Sequence record: MW749001.1
Source: Escherichia phage vB_EcoM_Kelasse
Reading direction: 5' to 3' (one strand)
DNA length: 64,000 nt
Part shown: one piece after another, positions 3,903 to 58,739 of the stretch
Layout of the letters: each line of letters begins with the position of its first letter
How positions within the stretch are numbered: position 1 is the first letter of the stretch
The notes under the pieces: model-generated
The model's database searches: none
Told to the model about the DNA's origin: nothing
Seen by the model: only the letters and a program-made list of their open reading frames with translations
Program-made: the position numbers and the translations under genes

Positions 3903-3916
3903 TCTTTGACGATTTA

Positions 3917-3934
3917 AGGGACCTTCGGGTCCCT
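3917..3934 (+). terminator. stem-loop terminator after gene 23
   Basis: GGGACC-TTCG-GGTCCC followed by T-rich run. Confidence 0.6.
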
Positions 3935-3950
3935 TTAGTTGTTTTTATGG

Positions 3951-6793: not shown

Positions 6794-6862
6794 GTTATCG
6801 AGTTGGTGCCATTATATACATCATTTTCTGATTGTGTTTTGTGTGCTTTCAAAATGAAGAAA

Positions 6863-6876
6863 GGGGCCGAAGCCCC
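6863..6876 (-). terminator. stem-loop after hoc
   Basis: GGGGC-CGAA-GCCCC; minus strand followed by TTTCTTCATTTT. Confidence 0.5.
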
Positions 6877-6882
6877 TTATGA

Positions 6883-9041: not shown

Positions 9042-10553
9042 ATGACTGACATTAAAGTACATTTTTATGATTTTAGTCACGTGAGAATTGATTGTGAAGA
9101 AAGTACATTTCATGAACTCCGTGATTTCTTTAGCTTTGAAGCTGATGGGTATCGTTTTAATCCGAAGTACAGATATGGCCACTGGGATGGACGAATCCGT
9201 CTTTTAGATTATAATCGCCTTCTTCCATTCGGCTTGGTCGGGCAAATTAAAAAGTTCTGTGATAACTTTGGCTATAAAGCCTGGATTGACCCGCAAATTA
9301 ACGAAAAAGAAGAATTATCAAGAAAAGATTTTGATGAATGGCTTTCTAAATTAGAAATCTATTCAGGAAATAAAAGAATTGAACCGCACTGGTATCAAAA
9401 AGATGCAGTGTTCGAAGGATTAGTTAATCGTCGTAGAATTCTTAATCTTCCAACATCTGCAGGTAAATCGTTAATTCAAGCTCTGCTTGCTCGGTATTAT
9501 TTGGAAAATTATGAAGGTAAAATTCTTATCATTGTTCCAACAACTGCTCTGACAACTCAGATGGCTGATGACTTCGTTGACTATCGTTTATTCAGTCATG
9601 CAATGATAAAGAAAATCGGCGGTGGAGCATCAAAAGATGATAAATATAAAAATGATGCACCAGTCGTTGTTGGTACATGGCAAACTGTAGTAAAACAACC
9701 GAAAGAATGGTTCTCACAGTTTGGAATGATGATGAATGATGAATGCCATCTTGCTACAGGAAAAAGTATTTCATCTATCATATCAGGTTTAAATAACTGC
9801 ATGTTTAAATTTGGTCTATCAGGTTCATTACGTGACGGCAAAGCCAATATCATGCAGTATGTTGGAATGTTTGGTGAAATATTTAAGCCAGTAACGACCT
9901 CTAAATTAATGGAAGATGGACAAGTAACTGAGTTAAAAATTAATAGTATTTTTCTTCGCTATCCCGATGAGTTCACTACTAAATTAAAGGGAAAAACTTA
10001 CCAAGAAGAAATAAAAATTATTACTGGGCTCAGTAAAAGAAATAAATGGATCGCTAAATTAGCTATTAAGCTTGCACAAAAAGATGAAAACGCTTTTGTC
10101 ATGTTTAAACACGTATCGCACGGTAAAGCTATTTTCGATTTAATTAAAAATGAATACGATAAAGTTTATTACGTATCAGGGGAAGTTGATACCGAAACCC
10201 GCAATATAATGAAAACCTTAGCTGAAAATGGTAAAGGAATAATTATAGTAGCGAGTTATGGTGTATTTTCTACTGGTATTTCAGTTAAAAATCTGCATCA
10301 TGTTGTTTTAGCGCACGGCGTTAAATCAAAAATCATTGTATTACAAACAATCGGTCGTGTATTACGTAAGCATGGTTCTAAGACAATAGCAACAGTCTGG
10401 GACCTCATCGATGATTGTGGTGTTAAGCCAAAATCTGCTAATACGAAAAAGAAATACGTTCATTTGAACTATCTTTTAAAACACGGCATTGATCGTATTC
10501 AGCGCTACGCAGATGAAAAATTTAATTACGTAATGAAAACAGTTAATTTATAA
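9042..10553 (+). CDS. uvsW: DNA/RNA helicase UvsW
   Basis: 503 aa, MTDIKVHFYDFSHVRIDCEE; Walker A PTSAGKS; DECH box; late promoter upstream. Confidence 0.9.
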   Translation: MTDIKVHFYDFSHVRIDCEESTFHELRDFFSFEADGYRFNPKYRYGHWDGRIRLLDYNRLLPFGLVGQIKKFCDNFGYKAWIDPQINEKEELSRKDFDEWLSKLEIYSGNKRIEPHWYQKDAVFEGLVNRRRILNLPTSAGKSLIQALLARYYLENYEGKILIIVPTTALTTQMADDFVDYRLFSHAMIKKIGGGASKDDKYKNDAPVVVGTWQTVVKQPKEWFSQFGMMMNDECHLATGKSISSIISGLNNCMFKFGLSGSLRDGKANIMQYVGMFGEIFKPVTTSKLMEDGQVTELKINSIFLRYPDEFTTKLKGKTYQEEIKIITGLSKRNKWIAKLAIKLAQKDENAFVMFKHVSHGKAIFDLIKNEYDKVYYVSGEVDTETRNIMKTLAENGKGIIIVASYGVFSTGISVKNLHHVVLAHGVKSKIIVLQTIGRVLRKHGSKTIATVWDLIDDCGVKPKSANTKKKYVHLNYLLKHGIDRIQRYADEKFNYVMKTVNL

Positions 10554-10566
10554 GGGCTTCGGCCCT

Positions 10567-10809
10567 TTGGAGAAAAAGATGTTACTAGAATTTAAACAAT
10601 TTCTTTATGAAGCTTCTATTGATGAATTTATGGGTAAAATTGCCTCTTGTCAAACATTAGAAGGTCTAGAAGAACTTGAAGCTTATTACAAGAAAAGAGT
10701 TAAAGAAACTGAATTAAAAGATACTGATGACATCTCTGTGAGAGATGCTTTGGCAGGAAAAAGAGCTGAATTAGAAGATTCAGACGATGAAGTAGAAGAA
10801 AGCTTTTAA
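10567..10809 (+). CDS. uvsW.1: small acidic protein (UvsW.1-like)
   Basis: 80 aa immediately downstream of uvsW. Confidence 0.55.
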   Translation: MEKKMLLEFKQFLYEASIDEFMGKIASCQTLEGLEELEAYYKKRVKETELKDTDDISVRDALAGKRAELEDSDDEVEESF

Positions 10810-27554: not shown

Positions 27555-27595
27555 AGTATTTTCCTCAGTAAGGGGCCGAAGCCCCTCATTTTATT

Positions 27596-47289: not shown

Positions 47290-50200
47290 ATGGCCGAGAT
47301 TAAAAGAAAGTTCAGAGCAGAAGATGGTCTGGACGCAGGTGGTGATAAAATAATCAACGTAGCTTTAGCTGATCGTGCCGTAGGAACTGACGGTGTTAAC
47401 GTTGATTACTTAATTCAAGAAAACACAGTTCAACAATACGATCCAACTCGTGGATATTTAAAAGATTTTGTAATCATTTATGATAACCGCTTTTGGGCTG
47501 CTATAAATGATATTCCAAAACCGGCAGGAGCTTTTAATAGCGGACGCTGGAGAGCATTACGTACCGATGCTAACTGGATTACGGTTTCATCTGGTTCATA
47601 TCAATTAAAATCTGGTGAAGCTATTTCGGTTAACACCGCAGCTGGTAATGATATTACATTTACTTTACCATCTACCCCAATTGATGGTGATACTATCGTT
47701 CTCCAAGATATTGGAGGAAAACCCGGAGTTAACCAAGTTTTAATTGTAGCTCCAGTGCAAAGTATTGTAAACTTTAGAGGTGAACAAGTACGTTCAGTAC
47801 TAATGACTCATCCAAAGTCACAGCTAGTTTTAATTTTTAGTAATCGTCTGTGGCAAATGTATGTAGCTGATTATAGTAGAGAAGCGGTAATTGTAACACC
47901 AGCAAGTCTCTATCAGGCGCAATCTAATGATTTTATCGTACGTAGATTTACTTCTGCTGCACCGATAAATATTAAACTTCCAAGATTTGCTAATCACGGC
48001 GATATTATTAATTTCGTCGATTTGGATAAATTAAACCCTCTTTATCATACAATTGTTACGACATACGATGAAACGACATCAGTACAAGAAGATGGAACTC
48101 ATTCCATTGAAGGCCGTACATCGATTGATGGCTTTTTAATGTATGATGATAACGAAAAATTATGGAGACTGTTTGACGGGGACAGTAAAGCACGTTTACG
48201 TATCATAACGACTAATTCAAACATTCGTCCAAACGAAGAAGTTATGGTATTTGGTGCGAATAACGGAACAATTCAAACAATTGAGCTTCAGCTTCCAACT
48301 AATATTTCTGTTGGTGATACTGTTAAAATTTCCATGAATTACATGAGAAAAGGACAAACAGTTAAAATCAAAGCTGCCGGTGAAGATAAAATTGCTTCTT
48401 CAGTTCAATTGCTGCAATTCCCAAAACGTTCAGAGTATCCGCCTGAAGCTGAGTGGGTTACAGTTCAAGAATTAGTTTTTAACGGTGAAACTAATTATGT
48501 TCCAGTTTTACAACTTGCTTATATAGAAGATTCTGATGGAAAATACTGGGTTGTGCAACAAAATGTTCCAACCGTAGAAAGAGTAGACTCTTTAAATGAT
48601 TCTACTAGAGCGAGATTAGGCGTAATAGCTTTAGCTACACAAGCTCAAGCTAATGTCGATTTAGAAAATTCTCCACAAAAAGAATTAGCAATTACTCCAG
48701 AAACATTAGCTAACCGTACTGCTACTGAAACTCGTAGAGGTATCGCAAGAATAGCAACTACTGCTCAAGTGAATCAGAACACCACATTCTCTTTTGCTGA
48801 TGACCTTATCATCACTCCTAAAAAGCTGAATGAAAGAACTGCTACAGAAACTCGCAGAGGTGTCGCAGAAATTGCTACACAACAGGAAACTAATACAGGT
48901 ACTGATGATACAACCATCATTACTCCTAAAAAGCTTCAAGCTCGTCAAGGTTCTGAATCATTATCTGGTATTGTAACTTTTGTATCTACTGCAGGTGCTA
49001 CTCCAGCTTCTAGCCGTGAATTAAATGGTACGAATGTTTATAATAAAAACACTAATAATTTAGTTGTTTCGCCAAAAGCTTTGGATCAGTATAAAGCTAC
49101 TCCAACGCAGCAAGGTGCAGTAATTTTAGCAGTTGAAAGTGAAGTAATTGCTGGACAAAGCCAAGAAGGATGGGCAAATGCGGTTGTAACGCCAGAAACG
49201 TTACATAAAAAGACATCAACTGATGGAAGAATTGGTTTAATTGAAATTGCTACGCAAAGTGAAGTTAATACAGGAACTGATTATACTCGTGCAGTCACTC
49301 CTAAAACTTTAAATGACCGTAGAGCAACTGAAAGTTTAAGTGGTATAGCTGAAATTGCTACACAAGTTGAATTCGACGCAGGCGTCGACGATACTCGTAT
49401 CTCTACACCATTAAAAATTAAAACCAGATTTAATAGTACTGATCGTACTTCTGTTGTTGCTCTATCTGGATTAGTTGAATCAGGAACTCTCTGGGACCAT
49501 TATACCCTTAATATTCTTGAAGCAAATGAGACGCAACGTGGTACACTTCGTGTAGCTACACAGGTCGAAGCTGCTGCAGGAACATTAGATAATGTTTTAA
49601 TAACTCCTAAAAAACTTTTAGGTACTAAATCTACTGAAGCACAGGAAGGTGTTATTAAAGTTGCAACCCAGTCTGAAACTGTGACTGGAACGTCAGCAAA
49701 TACTGCTGTATCTCCAAAAAATTTAAAATGGATTGTACAGAGTGAACCTACTTGGGCAGCTACTACTGCGATAAGAGGCTTTGTTAAAACTTCATCTGGT
49801 TCAATTACATTCGTTGGTAATGATACAGTCGGTTCTACCCAAGATTTAGAACTGTATGAGAAAAATAGCTATGCAGTATCACCATATGAATTAAACCGTG
49901 TATTAGCAAATTATTTACCGTTAAAAGCAAAAGCTGCTGATACAAATTTATTGGATGGTCTAGATTCATCTCAATTCATTCGTAGGGATATTGCACAGAC
50001 AGTTAATGGTTCACTAACCTTAACTCAACAAACGAATCTGAGTGCCCCTCTTGTATCATCTAGTACTGCTACGTTTGGTGGTTCAGTTTCGGCAAATAGT
50101 ACATTAACTATTTCTAATACTGGAACAGCAACTCGTCTGATTTTTGAAAAAGGACCTCAAACTGGAACTAACCCAGCACAGACGATGACTATCAGAGTAT

Positions 50201-51159
50201 GGGGAAATCAGTTTGGTGGCGGATCAGATACAACACGTTCTACTGTATTTGAAGTTGGTGATGAAACGTCTAATCACTTTTATTCTCAACGTAATAAAGC
50301 TGGGAATATAACGTTTAGTATCAATGGTACTGTAATGCCAATAAATGTTAATGCTTCGGGTTCTTTGAATGCGAATGGCGTAGCAACATTTGGTAGTTCA
50401 GTTACAGCCAATGGTGAATTCATTAGCAAGTCTGCAAATGCTTTCAGAGCAATAAACGGTGATTATGGATTCTTTATCAGGAATGATGGCGGCAGCACAT
50501 ATTTTATGCTCACTGCATCCGGTGATCAGACTGGCGGATTTAATGGATTACGTCCATTATCAATTAATAATCAATCCGGTCAAGTCACAATTGGTGAAAG
50601 CTTAATCATTGCCAAAGGTGCTACTATAAATTCAGGCGGTTTAACTGTTAACTCGAGAATTCGTTCTCAGGGTACTAAAACATCTGATTTATATACCCGT
50701 GCGCCAACATCTGATACTGTAGGATTCTGGTCAATTGATATTAATGATTCAGCTACTTATAACCAGTTCCCGGGTTATTTTAAAATGGTTGAAAAAACTA
50801 ATGAAGTGACTGGACTTCCGTACTTAGAACGTGGCGAAGAAGTTAAATCTCCTGGTACACTGACACAGTTTGGTAACACACTTGATTCGCTTTACCAAGA
50901 TTGGATTACTTATCCAACGACACCAGAAGCGCGTACCACTCGCTGGACACGTACATGGCAGAAAACCAAAAACTCTTGGTCGAGTTTTGTTCAGGTATTT
51001 GATGGAGGTAACCCTCCTCAACCATCTGATATCGGTGCTTTACCATCTGATAATGCTACAATGGGGAATCTTACTATTCGTGATTTCTTACGAATTGGTA
51101 ATGTTCGCATTATTCCTGACCCAGTGAATAAAACTGTTAAATTTGAATGGGTTGAATAA
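47290..51159 (+). CDS. 34: long tail fibre proximal subunit
   Basis: 1289 aa MAEIKRKFRAEDGLDAGGDKIINVALADRAVGTDGVN; internal fibre repeats; TATAAATA upstream. Confidence 0.9.
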   Translation: MAEIKRKFRAEDGLDAGGDKIINVALADRAVGTDGVNVDYLIQENTVQQYDPTRGYLKDFVIIYDNRFWAAINDIPKPAGAFNSGRWRALRTDANWITVSSGSYQLKSGEAISVNTAAGNDITFTLPSTPIDGDTIVLQDIGGKPGVNQVLIVAPVQSIVNFRGEQVRSVLMTHPKSQLVLIFSNRLWQMYVADYSREAVIVTPASLYQAQSNDFIVRRFTSAAPINIKLPRFANHGDIINFVDLDKLNPLYHTIVTTYDETTSVQEDGTHSIEGRTSIDGFLMYDDNEKLWRLFDGDSKARLRIITTNSNIRPNEEVMVFGANNGTIQTIELQLPTNISVGDTVKISMNYMRKGQTVKIKAAGEDKIASSVQLLQFPKRSEYPPEAEWVTVQELVFNGETNYVPVLQLAYIEDSDGKYWVVQQNVPTVERVDSLNDSTRARLGVIALATQAQANVDLENSPQKELAITPETLANRTATETRRGIARIATTAQVNQNTTFSFADDLIITPKKLNERTATETRRGVAEIATQQETNTGTDDTTIITPKKLQARQGSESLSGIVTFVSTAGATPASSRELNGTNVYNKNTNNLVVSPKALDQYKATPTQQGAVILAVESEVIAGQSQEGWANAVVTPETLHKKTSTDGRIGLIEIATQSEVNTGTDYTRAVTPKTLNDRRATESLSGIAEIATQVEFDAGVDDTRISTPLKIKTRFNSTDRTSVVALSGLVESGTLWDHYTLNILEANETQRGTLRVATQVEAAAGTLDNVLITPKKLLGTKSTEAQEGVIKVATQSETVTGTSANTAVSPKNLKWIVQSEPTWAATTAIRGFVKTSSGSITFVGNDTVGSTQDLELYEKNSYAVSPYELNRVLANYLPLKAKAADTNLLDGLDSSQFIRRDIAQTVNGSLTLTQQTNLSAPLVSSSTATFGGSVSANSTLTISNTGTATRLIFEKGPQTGTNPAQTMTIRVWGNQFGGGSDTTRSTVFEVGDETSNHFYSQRNKAGNITFSINGTVMPINVNASGSLNANGVATFGSSVTANGEFISKSANAFRAINGDYGFFIRNDGGSTYFMLTASGDQTGGFNGLRPLSINNQSGQVTIGESLIIAKGATINSGGLTVNSRIRSQGTKTSDLYTRAPTSDTVGFWSIDINDSATYNQFPGYFKMVEKTNEVTGLPYLERGEEVKSPGTLTQFGNTLDSLYQDWITYPTTPEARTTRWTRTWQKTKNSWSSFVQVFDGGNPPQPSDIGALPSDNATMGNLTIRDFLRIGNVRIIPDPVNKTVKFEWVE

Positions 51160-51167
51160 GAGGTATT

Positions 51168-52283
51168 ATGGAAAAATTTATGGCAGAGTTTGGACAAGGA
51201 TATGTCCAAACGCCATTTTTATCGGAAAGCAATTCAGTAAGATATAAAATAAGCATAGCGGGTTCTTGCCCGCTTTCTACAGCAGGACCATACGTTAAAT
51301 TTCAGGATAATCCTGTAGGAAGTCAAACATTTAGCGCAGGCCTTCATTTAAGAGTTTTTGACCCTTCCACCGGAGCATTAGTTGATAGTAAATCATATTC
51401 TTTTTCGACTTCAAATGATACTACATCAGCTGCCTTTGTTAGTTTCATGAATTCTTTGACGAATAATCGAATTGTTGCTATATTAACTAACGGAAAGGTT
51501 AATTTTCCTCCTGAAGTAGTATCTTGGTTAAGAACAGCAGGAACGTCTGCTTTTCCATCTGACTCTGTGTTGTCAAGATTCGACGTATCATATGCTGCTT
51601 TTTATACTTCTTCTAAAAGAGCTATTGCATTAGAGCATGTTAAACTGAGTAATAGAAAAAGCACAGATGATTATCAAACTATTTTAGATGTTGTATTTGA
51701 CAGTTTAGAAGACGTCGGAGCTACCGGGTTTCCAAGAAGAACGTATGAAAGCGTTGAGCAATTTATGTCAGCGGTTGGTGGAACTAATAACGAAATTGCC
51801 CGTCTACCTACAGCATCTGCAATAAGTAAATTATCTGATTATAATTTAATTCCTGGCGATGTTCTTTATCTTAAAGCTCAGTTATATGCTGATGCCGATT
51901 TACTTGCTCTTGGAACTACAAATATATCTATCCGTTTTTATAATGCATCAAATGGATATATTTCCTCGACACAAGCTGAATTTACCGGACAAGCTGGGTC
52001 ATGGGAATTAAAGGAAGATTATGTAGTTGTTCCAGAAAACGCTGTAGGATTTACGATATATGCACAAAGAACTGCTAAAGCTGGCCAAGGTGGCATGAGA
52101 AATTTAAGCTTTTCTGAAGTATCAAGAAACGGCGGTATTTCAAAACCTGCTGAATTTGGCGTCAACGGTATTCGTGTTAATTATATCTGTGAATCCGCTT
52201 CACCTCCGGATATAATGGTACTTCCTACGCAAGCATCGTCTAAAACTGGTAAAGTGTTTGGGCAAGAATTTAGAGAAGTATAA
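51168..52283 (+). CDS. 35: long tail fibre hinge connector
   Basis: 371 aa, directly after gene 34. Confidence 0.85.
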   Translation: MEKFMAEFGQGYVQTPFLSESNSVRYKISIAGSCPLSTAGPYVKFQDNPVGSQTFSAGLHLRVFDPSTGALVDSKSYSFSTSNDTTSAAFVSFMNSLTNNRIVAILTNGKVNFPPEVVSWLRTAGTSAFPSDSVLSRFDVSYAAFYTSSKRAIALEHVKLSNRKSTDDYQTILDVVFDSLEDVGATGFPRRTYESVEQFMSAVGGTNNEIARLPTASAISKLSDYNLIPGDVLYLKAQLYADADLLALGTTNISIRFYNASNGYISSTQAEFTGQAGSWELKEDYVVVPENAVGFTIYAQRTAKAGQGGMRNLSFSEVSRNGGISKPAEFGVNGIRVNYICESASPPDIMVLPTQASSKTGKVFGQEFREV

Positions 52284-52288
52284 ATTGA

Positions 52289-52306
52289 GGGAGCCTTCGG
52301 GTTCCC
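52289..52306 (+). terminator. intrinsic terminator after gene 35
   Basis: GGGAGCC-TTCG-GGTTCCC followed by TTTTTCTTT. Confidence 0.7.
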
Positions 52307-52314
52307 TTTTTCTT

Positions 52315-52322
52315 TATAAATA
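52315..52322 (+). promoter_or_regulatory. late promoter TATAAATA (gene 36/37/38)
   Basis: Exact TATAAATA between gene 35 terminator and gene 36. Confidence 0.65.
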
Positions 52323-52345: not shown

Positions 52346-53008
52346 ATGGCTGATTTAAAAGTAGGTTCAACAACTGGAGGCTCTGTCATTTGGCATCAAG
52401 GAAATTTTCCATTGAATCCAGCCGGTGACGATGTACTCTATAAATCATTTAAAATATATTCAGAATATAATAAACCACAAGCTGCTGATAACGATTTCGT
52501 TTCTAAAGCTAACGGTGGTACTTACGCCGCGACTGTTCGATTTAATGGAGGCGTACATGTTCCTACTATAGGTAGTAGTCAACAGTGCGGTGTTTATCCA
52601 GGTAACGGTGATGCAGCTACTTTTGCTATGGCAAATATTGACATCGTTTCGTGGAATGGTATTGGTTTTAAATCATCACAAGGTTCAGCAGACCGAACTG
52701 TTGTAATTAATGCACGTAATGGTGATATTAGTACAAAAGGCGTTGTGACAGCAGTAGGTCAAATAAGAAGTAATGCAGTTTCTCCTGTATCAGCAAATGA
52801 CCTTACTAGAAAGGACTATGTTGATGGAGCAATAAATACTGTTACAGCAAATGCGAACTCTAGGGTGCTACGATCTGGTGACACCATGATAGGTAATTTA
52901 ACAGCGCCAAACTTTTTCTCGCAGAATCCTGCATCTCAACCTTCACATGTTCCACGATTTGACCAAATCGTAATTAAGGATTCTGTTCAAGATTTCGGCT
53001 ATTATTAA
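52346..53008 (+). CDS. 36: long tail fibre distal connector
   Basis: 220 aa [29 protein letters not shown]; TATAAATA upstream. Confidence 0.85.
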
Positions 53009-53016
53009 GAGGACTT

Positions 53017-56000
53017 ATGGCTACTTTAAAACAAATACAATTTAAAAGAAGCAAAACCGCAGGTGCACGTCCTGCTGCTTCAGTATTAGCCGAAGGTGAA
53101 TTGGCTATAAACTTAAAAGATAGAACAATTTTTACTAAAGATGATACAGGAAATATCATTGATCTAGGTATTGCTAAAGGCGGTCAAATTGATGGAAATG
53201 TAACTATTGATGGAACTTTACGCGTCAATGGACCAATAAACAACTTTGGAAATTTTTCTACAAGTGGTACTATTACGGCAAGTAATATTGTTTCTGCTAC
53301 AGTATTCAGATCAACATCCGGTTCATTTTATACAAGAGCAATAAATGATACTGCAAATGCCCATCTTTGGTTTGAAAATACGAATGGATCGGAGAGAGGG
53401 GTTTTATATTCAAAACCACAGTCTGAAAATGAAGGCGTAATTACAATGCGCGTTCGCCAAGGAACCGCAGCAGGGGCTCAAAATTCAGAATTTCATTTCA
53501 TTTCTACTGATGGCGGTATCTTCCAGGCACGCAAATTAACTGCTTTAACTTCTATTAGTACACCAACTATTAGTGTTAATTTAATTAATCATGATTCTAA
53601 AGCCTTTGGACAATACGATTCACAATCATTAGTTCAGTATGTTTATCCTGGAACCGGTGAAACAAATGGTGTAAACTATCTTCGTAAAGTTCGAGCTAAA
53701 TCAGGTGGCACTATGTGGCATGAAATCTGTACAGCTCAGACAGGACAAGCTGATGAAATGTCATGGTGGACTGGTAATACTCCTCAGTCTAAACAATACG
53801 GTATTCGTAATGACGGACGAATGGCTGGACGTAATAGCCTTGCATTAGGTACATTCACTACAAATTTCCCGTCTAGTGATTATGGCAACGTCGGTGTAAT
53901 GGGCGATAAATATCTTGTTCTCGGTGACACTGTAACTGGCTTGTCATACAAAAAAACTGGTGTATTTGATCTAGTTGGCGGTGGATATTCTGTTGCTTCT
54001 ATTACTCCTGACAGTTTCCGTAGTACTCGTAAAGGTATATTTGGTCGTTCCGAGGACCAAGGCACCACATGGATTATGCCTGGCACTAATGCCGCTTTCT
54101 TGTCTGTTCAAACACAAGCTGATAATAACAATGCTGGAGACGGCCAGACGCATATTGGGTACAATGCTGGCGGTAAAATGAGTCATTATTTCCGCGGTAA
54201 AGGCAAAACTAATATTAATACTCAGGAAGGTGTAGACGTTAACCCGGGTATATTGAAGTTAACCACCGGCGGTGAAAGTATTAGCTTTAATGCCGCAACT
54301 GGAAGTATTAATTCTACATTAGCTTTTCGTCTTAATAAAGGCATAATTATTGATGGACCTGATAATCAGGGATTCCAGTTTAACGCCCCGACGGCTGCAG
54401 ATGGTACTAGAAGTATATACTGGAACAGTGGTACTCGCGCAGGTCAAAACAAAAGCCCTGTTACAGTTAAAGTGTGGGGTAATTCATTTAACGCATCGGG
54501 CGATCGTGCTCGTGAAACGGTTTTTGAAGTAGCTGATGGGCAAGGTTTCCATTTTTATTCTCAACGTGTAGCTCCTGCGCCTGGTTCTACCGTCGGACCT
54601 ATTCAATTTCGAGTTAATGGTGGTTTATTAACTTCTGGTGGTATTACATCATCTGGTTCTATTGTTACTGAATCAAGTTTAGTTGCCAATAATGGCATGT
54701 CAGTAAATGGTCAGGCTAAATTTGGCGGAACAGCAAACGCACTGAGAATTTGGAACGCTGAATACGGTGTTATTTTCCGTCGTTCTGAAAGTAACTTTTA
54801 CATTATTCCAACCAATCAAAATGAAGGCGAAAGCGGAGACATTCATAGCTCTTTGAGACCTGTAAGAATAGGATTAAACGATGGCATGGTTGGGTTAGGA
54901 AGAGATTCTTTTATAGTAGATCAAAATAATGCTTTAACTACGATAAACAGTAACTCTCGCATTAATGCCAACTTTAGAATGCAATTAGGGCAGTCGACAT
55001 ATATTGATGCAGAATGCACTGATGCCGTTAGACCTGCAGGGGCTGGTTCATTTGCCTCGCAAAATAATGAAAACGTCCGTGCTCCGTTCTATATGAATAT
55101 TAATCGCACAGATACAAGTACTTACGTTCCAATTGTTAAACAGAGATACGTACAAAATAATAGTTGCTATTCTATTGGTACTTTAATTAATGGCGGTAAT
55201 TTTAGAGTTCATTATCATGAAGGTGGTGATGGCGGTTCTACTGGCGCGATTATAAAGGATTTAGGTTGGGAATTTAATAAAAACGGTGATTTTTACTCTC
55301 CTGGTAAATTAGGTGCTGGAAATATTCGTATCGGAACAGACGGTAATATTACAGGTGGTTCTGGTAATTTTGCTAACTTGAATACCACATTAAACCGTAA
55401 GGTCAATTCCGGATTTGTAACATACGGTGCAACTGCTGGATGGTATAAATTCGCTACAGTAACGATGCCACAATCTACTTCTACTGTTTCATTTACTATA
55501 ACTGGTGGTAAAGGATTTAATACCGGACTGTTTACACAATGTGCTATAACAGAAATTGTTCTTCGTACTGGTAATGACCGCCCAGCAGGTTTAAACGCCG
55601 TGATGTATACCAGAACAGCTGCAGGTCTTACTGATATTGCTGTAGTTAATACCTCAGGAAATACATATGATATCTATGTTGAATCTGGTACTTATGCCAA
55701 TCAATTAGCTTATACATGGCATACAGTTGATAATGCTACAGTAGAAGTTATCGGCGCTTTTGGTCCTACTCAAGACCCGGTAGATTCTTTGCCGGCTGAT
55801 TATGTTAAAGGCCAAGTAGCTAACATGCTTAACAACCTGGTAGACACAGGTAAAGTAAAACGTTATGTAGCAGAATCTGAAATTGCTATTAATAACCAAA
55901 CGGGTCTTCGTATTACGAGTAATTCTGATAGATCAGGTTCTAATTCCGTTTTATTTCGAAATGACGGTGGAAGCTTCTATATTTTACTGACTGACAAAAA

Positions 56001-56955
56001 CTCTTCAGACGGCGATAATAAAGCAACTGAAGGCGATTGGAATGGAAAACGACCGTTTTCAATCGATATGACTGCTGGTACTGTTCGTCTTGGCGAAAAT
56101 ACTTCTTTTGATAAAGATATTACTATTAATGGAAACATTAATTCACGAGTTAAAGCTGCCGGACAATGGAGTGTTAGCTTTTCTGCTATTTCAGATGTGA
56201 CTCGCGACAATTCTGCATTCTTAGCGAATACGGGTGGCATTTCCAAGACAAGTCAAGCTTATTACCCGCTATTTTCTGGATACAGTTTTTTAACTGACGC
56301 GGGTTATCGACAATCGTTTGAATTTGGATGGTTAGGTGTTTCTGGTACTTGGCGCCAAGGCATTATTCGCATGCGTGGTGACAACGCATCGGGGCAACAG
56401 GCTCGTTGGACTTTTGATATGGACGGAACATTTTATGCTCCTATACTATCATGCGGATCTGCGAGAGCATTCGGTGTCAATACATCAAATGGTCTCGGTG
56501 GAAACAGTATAACATTTGGTGATAGCGATACTGGTATTAAGCAAAATGGCGATGGATTATTAGACATATATGCGAACAGCGTACAAGTGTTCCGTTTCCA
56601 AAACGGTGATTTGTACTCATACAAAAATATAAATGCTCCAAACGTTTATATTCGTTCTGATATTCGTTTAAAATCCAACTTCAAACCTATCGAAAATGCA
56701 CTTGATAAAGTTGAAAAACTCAACGGTGTCATTTACGATAAAGCTGAATACATCGGTGGAGAGGCAATTGAAACTGAAGCGGGTATTGTGGCTCAAACGT
56801 TACAAGACGTTTTACCAGAAGCTGTCCGTGAAACAGAAGACAGTAAGGGTAATAAAATACTCACTGTTTCTTCTCAAGCCCAGATTGCTCTTCTAGTTGA
56901 AGCTGTGAAAACACTTTCTTCTCGTGTAAAAGAACTTGAATCTAAACTTATGTAA
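53017..56955 (+). CDS. 37: long tail fibre distal subunit with C-terminal intramolecular chaperone domain
   Basis: 1312 aa [43 protein letters not shown]; shares VWGN..F...TVFEV..HFYSQR repeat with gp34; C-terminus has SDIRLKSN...[15 protein letters not shown]. Confidence 0.85.
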
Positions 56956-56957
56956 AG

Positions 56958-56973
56958 GAGGGCTTCGGCCCTC
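56958..56973 (+). terminator. stem-loop between gene 37 and gene 38
   Basis: GAGGGC-TTCG-GCCCTC directly after gene 37 stop; short T-run; may attenuate or stabilise. Confidence 0.45.
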
Positions 56974-56985
56974 TAAGGATTTTTA

Positions 56986-57777
56986 ATGGCAATTGTAGGT
57001 GTTCCTGGCTGGATTGGTGAATCTGCCGTGAATGAAACTGGACAACGCTGGATGGACGCTGCGATGAAAGCTGTTCGTGTTTCAGTTCCCGGTTGGATGA
57101 GTTCAATGGCTGGGCAATCTAAAGAAGTATATTATAGCGTTGGTGCTAGCAATTCTTACAATAAAGACACACTAATAAATTGGATAAAAGCCCAAGGCAG
57201 TACTCCTGTTGTTATTACTATTACAGGAAATATTGTTTCTCAATCTACTGGTGTTCCATGCTTAGATTTTCCTAGCTCATTAACTAATGCATATGTTACC
57301 TTAAATATTAATAGTGGGGTTCATGTATTAGGTCGGGGAGGAAATGGCGGAAGTAACTCTGCTGGCGGAGCAGGAGGAACTGCAATAAATAACGGAATTG
57401 GAACTCGTTTAAGAATAAACAATAATGGTATTATTGGTGGCGGCGGAGGTGGCGGCGCTGGTGCTAGATACCATCCTTTCCCTCAAATGGATATGATATT
57501 TGGTGGCGGCGGAGGTCGTCCATTTGGCGCAGCTGGCGCAGCAGGAGGTGGCGCAGCGGCAGCATCCGCTGGTACAATTTCTGCTCCTGGTAAAGGTACT
57601 GTTTCTGGGGTTCACTATGGAGGAAATGGTGGAGATTTGGGAGCTGCTGGCAAATCTTCATATATTAAAGGTGGTACTGGAGGAACTGTTCACTCGGGTG
57701 GTGCTGCGGGTAAAGCTGTTACTGGTAATGCTCCAACTTGGACTAAAGTTGGCACAATATATGGTTCAAGAGTATAA
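56986..57777 (+). CDS. 38: tail fibre tip adhesin (T2-type gp38)
   Basis: 263 aa MAIVGVPGWIGESAVNETGQRWMDAAMKAV; multiple glycine-rich motifs separated by variable segments. Confidence 0.8.
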   Translation: MAIVGVPGWIGESAVNETGQRWMDAAMKAVRVSVPGWMSSMAGQSKEVYYSVGASNSYNKDTLINWIKAQGSTPVVITITGNIVSQSTGVPCLDFPSSLTNAYVTLNINSGVHVLGRGGNGGSNSAGGAGGTAINNGIGTRLRINNNGIIGGGGGGGAGARYHPFPQMDMIFGGGGGRPFGAAGAAGGGAAAASAGTISAPGKGTVSGVHYGGNGGDLGAAGKSSYIKGGTGGTVHSGGAAGKAVTGNAPTWTKVGTIYGSRV

Positions 57778-57809
57778 TTTTTGAATAAATATCCTTAAAA
57801 GGAGGGTCT

Positions 57810-58466: not shown

Positions 58467-58739
58467 TTATTTGTTCGTATACATCTCTAGATATCGATAT
58501 ACACCCTCAAAACCCTCGTTGAATTCGTCGATGAGGGTTTTCTTATCTTCTTGAGTTAATTCAGAAACAATTTTACGGAATGAATTCTGATTTAATTTTC
58601 TACCTTCATGCGTTACTCCAATCTCATTCAGAAATGCAATAAAATTAGCACGATTTTCAACAATATCTTCTCTGGAAAATTTAATCAAAATAGACGCAAC
58701 AGTAATAATTTCACGAACTGTATCAATGTTTTTATTCAT
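58467..58739 (-). CDS. asiA: anti-sigma-70 factor
   Basis: 90 aa MNKNIDTVREIITVASILIKFSREDIVENRANFIAFLNEIG. Confidence 0.85.
   Translation of the reverse strand: MNKNIDTVREIITVASILIKFSREDIVENRANFIAFLNEIGVTHEGRKLNQNSFRKIVSELTQEDKKTLIDEFNEGFEGVYRYLEMYTNK

Follow-up and report, generated by a model that had tools for sequence, protein, structure and literature searches.

A putative self-removing chaperone domain of gp37 and a T2-type adhesin gene at the long-tail-fibre tip locus of a Tequatrovirus

Maturation of the distal long-tail-fibre subunit gp37 of phage T2 involves the removal of about 120 residues from the protein, and this C-terminal processing was reportedly documented by Drexler, Riede and Henning in 1986. 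The structure of the gp37-gp38 tip of phage S16 is likewise said to have been solved in 2018. Endosialidases were the proteins on which the intramolecular chaperone (IMC) family was defined, around 2007-2010, and work on one of them, endoNF, attributed to Schulz et al. in 2010, reportedly points to the residue pair Ser911/Lys916, with the lysine as general base. The passages of PMC3157838 that deal with T2 and T6 describe a gp37 that undergoes C-terminal cleavage before gp38 caps it, and those on T4 describe folding that depends on a C-terminal extension of gp37 together with trans-acting chaperones. For S16, the account in PMC7917993 has the cleavage of gp37 exposing a docking surface into which conserved tryptophans of gp38 insert. 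In the RNA of this region, T4 has a hairpin that brings the AUG of gene 38 to within 5 nt of its Shine-Dalgarno motif, as against 22 nt otherwise, and helps initiation (PMC3014915). T4 uses only this upstream Shine-Dalgarno motif, brought near the AUG by the hairpin.

Here we describe the corresponding locus in a 64,000-nt stretch of DNA, referred to as the window, the source of which is a Tequatrovirus. The C-terminus of its gp37 is very probably a self-removing IMC of a T2-type fibre tip, and the hairpin that follows the gene a T-even intercistronic element. The features on which this reading is built are collected in Table 1.

Table 1. Features of the tail-fibre tip locus, with their positions in the window.
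Feature	Position	Strand	Details and basis
gp34	47290-51159		upstream of gene 37
gp35, hinge protein	51168-52283		upstream of gene 37
gp36	52346-53008		upstream of gene 37; Pfam Phage_T4_gp36
Gene 37, long tail fibre distal subunit	53017-56955	+	1312 aa, precursor 140.6 kDa; ORF list and translation
Predicted mature gp37, residues 1-1213	53017-56655	+	alignment to the S16 and fPS sites
Conserved cassette	56467-57135	+	blastn of the window against T2, 96.9% DNA identity
IMC domain, gp37 residues 1214-1312 (99 aa)	56656-56952	+	Pfam PF13884, PHROG profiles, PDB matches, T2 identity
Peptidase_S74 core, residues 1214-1271	56656-56829	+	hmmscan, model positions 1-58 of 58
Ser1214 codon (TCT)	56656-56658	+	conserved, predicted nucleophile; first residue of the predicted released domain
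Lys1219 codon (AAA)	56671-56673	+	predicted partner in a Ser-Lys dyad, 5 residues after Ser1214
Predicted helical segment at the end of the IMC, residues 1272-1312	56830-56952	+	alignment of 11 fibre C-termini
C(UUCG)G intercistronic hairpin, GGAGGGC-TTCG-GCCCTCT	56957-56974	+	folding, -13.4 kcal/mol
AAGGA, Shine-Dalgarno-like motif of gene 38	56975-56979	+	6 nt ahead of the ATG
Gene 38, T2-type tail-fibre adhesin, 263 aa	56986-57777	+	Pfam, PHROG

Gene 37 closes with a TAA stop codon at 56953-56955, and the region from 56300 to 57800 shares 99.4% DNA identity with Escherichia phage TadeuszReichstein (Bas43, MZ501106), in whose record the two matching genes carry the names long-tail-fibre distal subunit Gp37 and adhesin tip Gp38, with holin and asiA coming next. 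Several observations were made in the surroundings of the tip-encoding region. Residues 58-127 of the hinge protein gp35 match the Pfam family ILEI (PF15711; interleukin-like EMT inducer / FAM3-PANDER-type domain) at 37.2 bits, where the cut-off is 27, and with an E-value of 4.2e-09, which is an unexpected family for a phage fibre hinge. Within gp37 itself, residues 493-617 (54493-54867) match Gp34_trimer (PF21446; E 1.2e-09) in two stretches, and such a match is likewise present in the gp37 proteins of T2 and T4; the segment fits modules that may be shared or duplicated between the proximal and distal fibre subunits. Downstream of gene 38, a terminator-like inverted repeat of 14 pairs (AAAACCCTCGTTGAATTCGTCGATGAGGGTTTT) at 58509-58541 falls within the minus-strand ORF 58467-58739, the counterpart of asiA in the related record.

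The end of gp37 can be assigned, by its sequence, to the Peptidase_S74 family. A preliminary description of this DNA had proposed that the last 99 residues of the 1312-residue protein, starting at S-D-I-R-L-K-S-N, constitute a C-terminal chaperone-type domain of the kind found in phage tail fibres and endosialidases. The translation agrees with these boundaries, and the HMM search bears out the domain assignment: PF13884 (Peptidase_S74, "chaperone of endosialidase") matches the end of gp37 over the full length of the model with 56.7 bits and an E-value of 2.9e-15 when the whole protein is searched (cut-off 22 bits), and with an E-value of 9.9e-17 when the query is the C-terminal 119-aa fragment. 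The match begins at the very serine that had been named, Ser1214 being position 1 of the model, and places the domain at the extreme C-terminus of the fibre protein. This domain is widespread, with tblastn finding it in 1728 phage records, and it keeps both its context and its placement, as 22 of its best 25 PHROG matches are to tail-fibre or baseplate families and all of these 25 fall at the C-terminal end of the profile or within about 30 positions of it. A 66-aa ORF (56696-56896) runs in a different frame inside the coding region of the IMC and was treated as a chance ORF.

Structural counterparts were sought among PDB sequences. A phmmer search returned the long-tail-fibre distal subunit of S16 (6F45, E 1.9e-11) and also a chain of the myelin regulatory factor, MYRF (7DC3). 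The search was extended with a profile made from an alignment of 11 fibre C-termini, namely those of the window, T2, S16, JS98, RB69, a T5-like Salmonella phage, two Synechococcus phages, Thermus phage TMA, a Tlsvirus and Vibrio phage VH7D. This profile matches 6F45 (3.8e-47), 7DC3 (7e-14), the tail fibre 8JOV (2e-9), the neck appendage protein chain 3GUD (1e-3) and the L-shaped tail fibre 8HQZ (7e-3). The endoNF chaperone structure was not recovered by the profile at E-values up to 10, and the link to the endosialidases thus rests on membership of the Pfam family and on 3GUD. In the alignment, the C-terminal helical segment of the IMC is shorter in the window than in S16, JS98, RB69 and T5-like fibres. 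A single-sequence AlphaFold2 model of the last 151 residues (pLDDT 52, pTM 0.37), in which helices are predicted, one of them at residues 126-150 of the fragment, was too poor for a fold search.

The residues expected of an autocatalytic site are conserved within this domain. Ser1214, Asp1215 and Lys1219 are invariant among the 11 diverse C-termini of the alignment, as are further G, A, P, V and L positions downstream. The phmmer alignment sets RSDIRLKSN of gp37 over SSDRRIKKD of S16 gp37 (6F45), and Ser1214 thereby aligns with the cleavage-site serine of S16. In PMC7917993 that site is given as DLNVS^SDRRIKK (the caret marking the cleaved bond), at which the IMC is described as autocleaved, and the homologous site of the Yersinia fPS phages is given as DVYIR^SDGRLKI. 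The sequence around the predicted site in the window reads NVYIR|SDIRLKS (the bar marking a bond placed by alignment). Chain 3GUD starts with SDERHK, its residue 1 aligning with the conserved serine. Because S16 gp37 is cut directly before this serine and the 3GUD chain starts with it, the cleaved bond is predicted to lie on the N-terminal side of the serine, between Arg1213 and Ser1214, which refines the preliminary description. Mature gp37 is thus predicted to end in ...NAPNVYIR with a mass of about 129.8 kDa, and the released fragment is predicted to be acidic and to measure 10.8 kDa. The last residues before the bond would form the tip on which gp38 docks, and they resemble known docking strands, with NVYIR|SD in the window as compared with DVYIR^SD in the fPS phages, DVYIR|SD in JS98, DVYVR|SD in RB69 and a sequence identical to that of the window in T2.

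The protein expected to occupy such a docking tip is encoded directly downstream of gene 37, where a gene is found whose product carries both a GP38 adhesin domain and an N-terminal attachment domain. Its Pfam matches are strong (GP38 adhesin, E 7.1e-69; Gp38_N, E 7.3e-18), and the match to PHROG 2056 extends over the full length of the protein (E 2e-101). The tryptophans W9, W22 and W37 are invariant with those of the S16 and T2 gp38 proteins, and the polyglycine stretches are kept. When gp37 and gp38 of the window were searched with Pfam, neither Collar nor Phage_fiber, the domains that characterize a T4-type tip, was found. The fibre tip is therefore classed as T2-type and not as T4-type, as the preliminary description had suggested: an S74 domain on gp37 and a gp38 adhesin occur together here and in T2, and T4 is without both.

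The blastn comparison of the window with T2 delimits a conserved cassette of about 670 bp (Table 1). It runs from the tip of gp37 through the IMC and the hairpin into the attachment domain of gp38 and takes in the first ~50 codons of gene 38. On both flanks, which encode the gp37 shaft and the receptor-binding parts of gp38, respectively, T2 yields short and weak matches only, of 79-85% identity over at most 107 bp. The left boundary is common to many other phages, the megablast matches of which start at 56468-56494 (query positions 169-195). The cassette is a conserved joint between a variable gp37 shaft and a variable receptor-binding region of gp38, a pattern in keeping with the modular exchange that PMC3157838 describes here.

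The hairpin enclosed in this cassette begins one base past the stop codon of gene 37 and consists of seven pairs, with a C-G pair closing the loop and a terminal G-U pair. A UUCG-loop hairpin after the stop codon had already been noted in the preliminary description, the end coordinate of which (56973) corresponds to the final Watson-Crick pair; folding and the conserved position of the hairpin in other phages both agree with it. Its folding energy is not significant when compared with shuffled sequences (z -1.49; 17 of 200 shuffles fold equally well), and the argument for its reality is therefore the conservation of position and pairing across phages instead of the energy. Every T-even phage examined has a hairpin whose loop is of the C(YNCG)G type in the gap from the stop of gene 37 to the start of gene 38, with stems that differ: AGAGGGC-TTCG-GCCCTCT in T2, one base off that of the window; AGAGGGGC-TTCG-GCCCTTCT in T4; AGAGCC-TACG-GGCTCT in S16; AGGGCC-CTCG-GGCCCT in JS98; and AGGGGC-TTCG-GCCCCT in RB69. 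Stem covariation was scored over these six sequences, a small set in which JS98 is offset by one column and the statistics are only indicative: 90.5% of the cells pair, 5 of the 7 pairs have changed on both sides, and out-of-register partners pair far less.

Hairpins of this kind are frequent in the window as a whole. The motif CTTCGG occurs 33 times in the 64,000 nt against 14.9 expected, a count that none of 100 shuffles reached, and there are 14 hairpins that have a TTCG loop and a stem of 5 bp or more, against 3.5 in shuffles. For at least five of them, the start lies no more than 15 nt from a long ORF's stop codon. Examples are located at 3916-3935, 6861-6878 (minus strand), 10552-10567, 27569-27588 (minus strand) and 52287-52308. 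The last of these is a 9-bp C(UUCG)G hairpin that begins 4 nt past the gp35 stop and is directly followed, just before gene 36, by the late-promoter consensus TATAAATA at 52315-52322.

Regarding the function of the hairpin between genes 37 and 38, its position relative to promoters and ribosome-binding motifs is informative. The late promoter at 52315 is the nearest one upstream that matches the consensus on the plus strand, and TATAAATA is absent from that strand between 52315 and gene 38, which means that transcription has to pass the hairpin to reach gene 38. The hairpin lies in the late 36-37-38 transcript, shortly before the ribosome-binding site of gene 38, and most likely affects either mRNA stability or the initiation of gene 38 translation. 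As a canonical AAGGA is present downstream of the hairpin in the window, the split arrangement of T4 is not needed; S16, JS98 and RB69 have equivalent AGGAG/GGAGG motifs downstream of their hairpins. In the window a perfect AGGAGG (56955-56963 region) also stands right after the gene 37 stop, and the hairpin's 5' arm takes up most of it. The presence of a Shine-Dalgarno motif after the hairpin, together with this half-buried AGGAGG, indicates that the role may differ from that in T4. It can be suggested, tentatively and at a rather low probability, that in T2-type phages the hairpin is a selected regulatory element, independent of the T4 role, that would set the output of gp38 relative to gp37 or protect the upstream mRNA from 3' decay. 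In S16, one adhesin is bound per gp37 trimer.

Alternatively, the hairpin could bring the gene 36-37 transcript to an end as a Rho-independent terminator. The record of phage G50 annotates it as a putative transcriptional terminator, and a simple terminator scan also matched it on account of a 7-bp stem with TTTTT nearby. However, the T-run starts 5 nt past the stem instead of abutting it, and the stretch from the hairpin to gene 38 is without a late-promoter consensus, so that efficient termination would silence an essential adhesin gene. Moreover, the equivalent T4 hairpin is without any T-run and is a documented element of translation initiation (PMC3014915). Termination at this point is thus unlikely, and partial attenuation may occur. 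The hairpin belongs to a known type of intercistronic element, the stable C(UNCG)G hairpins typical of T-even phages, and is unlikely to terminate efficiently.

In the model that follows from T2, S16 and the endosialidase literature, three gp37 chains would come together via their IMC domains, and the resulting IMC trimer would act as a template for the folding of the preceding trimeric fibre tip. Once the tip has folded, Ser1214, activated by Lys1219, would attack the Arg1213-Ser1214 bond in each chain. This would release the IMC and leave a mature gp37 ending in ...NVYIR, on which gp38 could dock. By analogy with these systems, we infer that gp37 is cleaved in this phage.

A cut made by a host or phage protease, with the S74-like domain serving only as a folding or trimerisation module, is very improbable. 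The serine and the lysine five residues on are invariant across very distant carriers of the domain, chain 3GUD starts exactly at the conserved serine, and the match to 7DC3 places a homologous domain, which in MYRF autocleaves, in a eukaryotic protein without a phage protease. Moreover, the IMC of S16 is described as autocleaved at the aligned site (PMC7917993). What can be said for an external protease is that the passages on T2 and T6 in PMC3157838 report proteolytic cleavage and name no protease, and that self-cleavage is here deduced from sequence comparison. Least probable of all, with nothing found in its favour, is that the domain is kept, uncleaved, as a permanent structural cap while gp38 binds elsewhere or transiently, given that the domain is near-identical to its counterpart in T2 gp37, a protein that PMC3157838 describes as processed, that its catalytic residues are intact in the alignment, and that the gp38 attachment domain is conserved with its tryptophans, the S16 counterpart of which docks on the surface exposed by cleavage according to PMC7917993.

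A self-removing folding domain on T-even gp37 is already known, and its presence here adds little new biology. What the analysis does provide is a predicted exact mature C-terminus (Arg1213) for a gp37 that is labelled only "long tail fibre distal subunit" in database records. This mature C-terminus and the cassette boundaries are of practical use for annotation and engineering, with the cassette representing a natural junction for adhesin swaps when host range is to be retargeted.

Among the systems to which the locus can be compared, one carrier of the domain is MYRF, a eukaryotic membrane-bound transcription factor in which cleavage releases a DNA-binding trimer. Its autoprocessing domain (7DC3) is homologous to that of the window (E 7e-14 with the profile) and aligned from just before the conserved serine. 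The chaperone of the endosialidase endoNF / K1F and the GA-1 neck appendage protein (3GUD) are founding members of Peptidase_S74 and thus belong to the same family as the window domain, and the motif SD-x-R/H-x-K at the start of the released domain is common to 3GUD and the window. These carriers are, however, tailspikes or appendages with triple beta-helix or beta-prism stalks and not T-even fibre tips, and their cleaved end is without an adhesin cap. The L-shaped tail fibre of the T5 type (pb1 / LtfA; 8HQZ) has, as in the window, a C-terminal S74 IMC on a long fibre. In this type it is the fibre's own tip that binds the receptor after cleavage, and we know of no separate gp38-like adhesin on it.

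The other systems are T-even phages with and without the processing domain. T4 has the same gene order as the window, homologous N-terminal and shaft regions of gp37, a Gp34_trimer-like domain and a C(UUCG)G hairpin before gene 38. In contrast, Collar and Phage_fiber repeat domains make up the end of its gp37, which is without an S74 match, and its gp38, annotated in RefSeq as a tail-fibre assembly protein, has no match to GP38 adhesin and is, together with gp57A, a folding chaperone. S16 (6F45) is like the window in having a homologous IMC, a gp38 adhesin with conserved tryptophans and polyglycine, and an intergenic hairpin. The IMC-containing regions of the two are about 25% identical, the S16 IMC has 113 residues and a longer C-terminal helix as compared with the 99 residues of the window, the cleaved bond is preceded by Ser in S16 and, as predicted, by Arg in the window, and the hairpin loop is UACG in S16 and UUCG in the window. 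The closest system is T2 (AP018813), in which gp37 has its S74 match at 1243-1300 (E 3.3e-15) and gp38 carries the same adhesin domains. The gp37 proteins, of 1341 residues in T2 and 1312 in the window, are about 65% identical overall, and the gp38 proteins are 63% identical and diverge outside the N-terminal attachment domain. At the tip, however, the last 161 residues of gp37 (1152-1312 in the window, 1181-1341 in T2) are the same but for one Ser/Ala difference, and the 99-aa domain itself is identical to that of T2 at 98 of its 99 positions.
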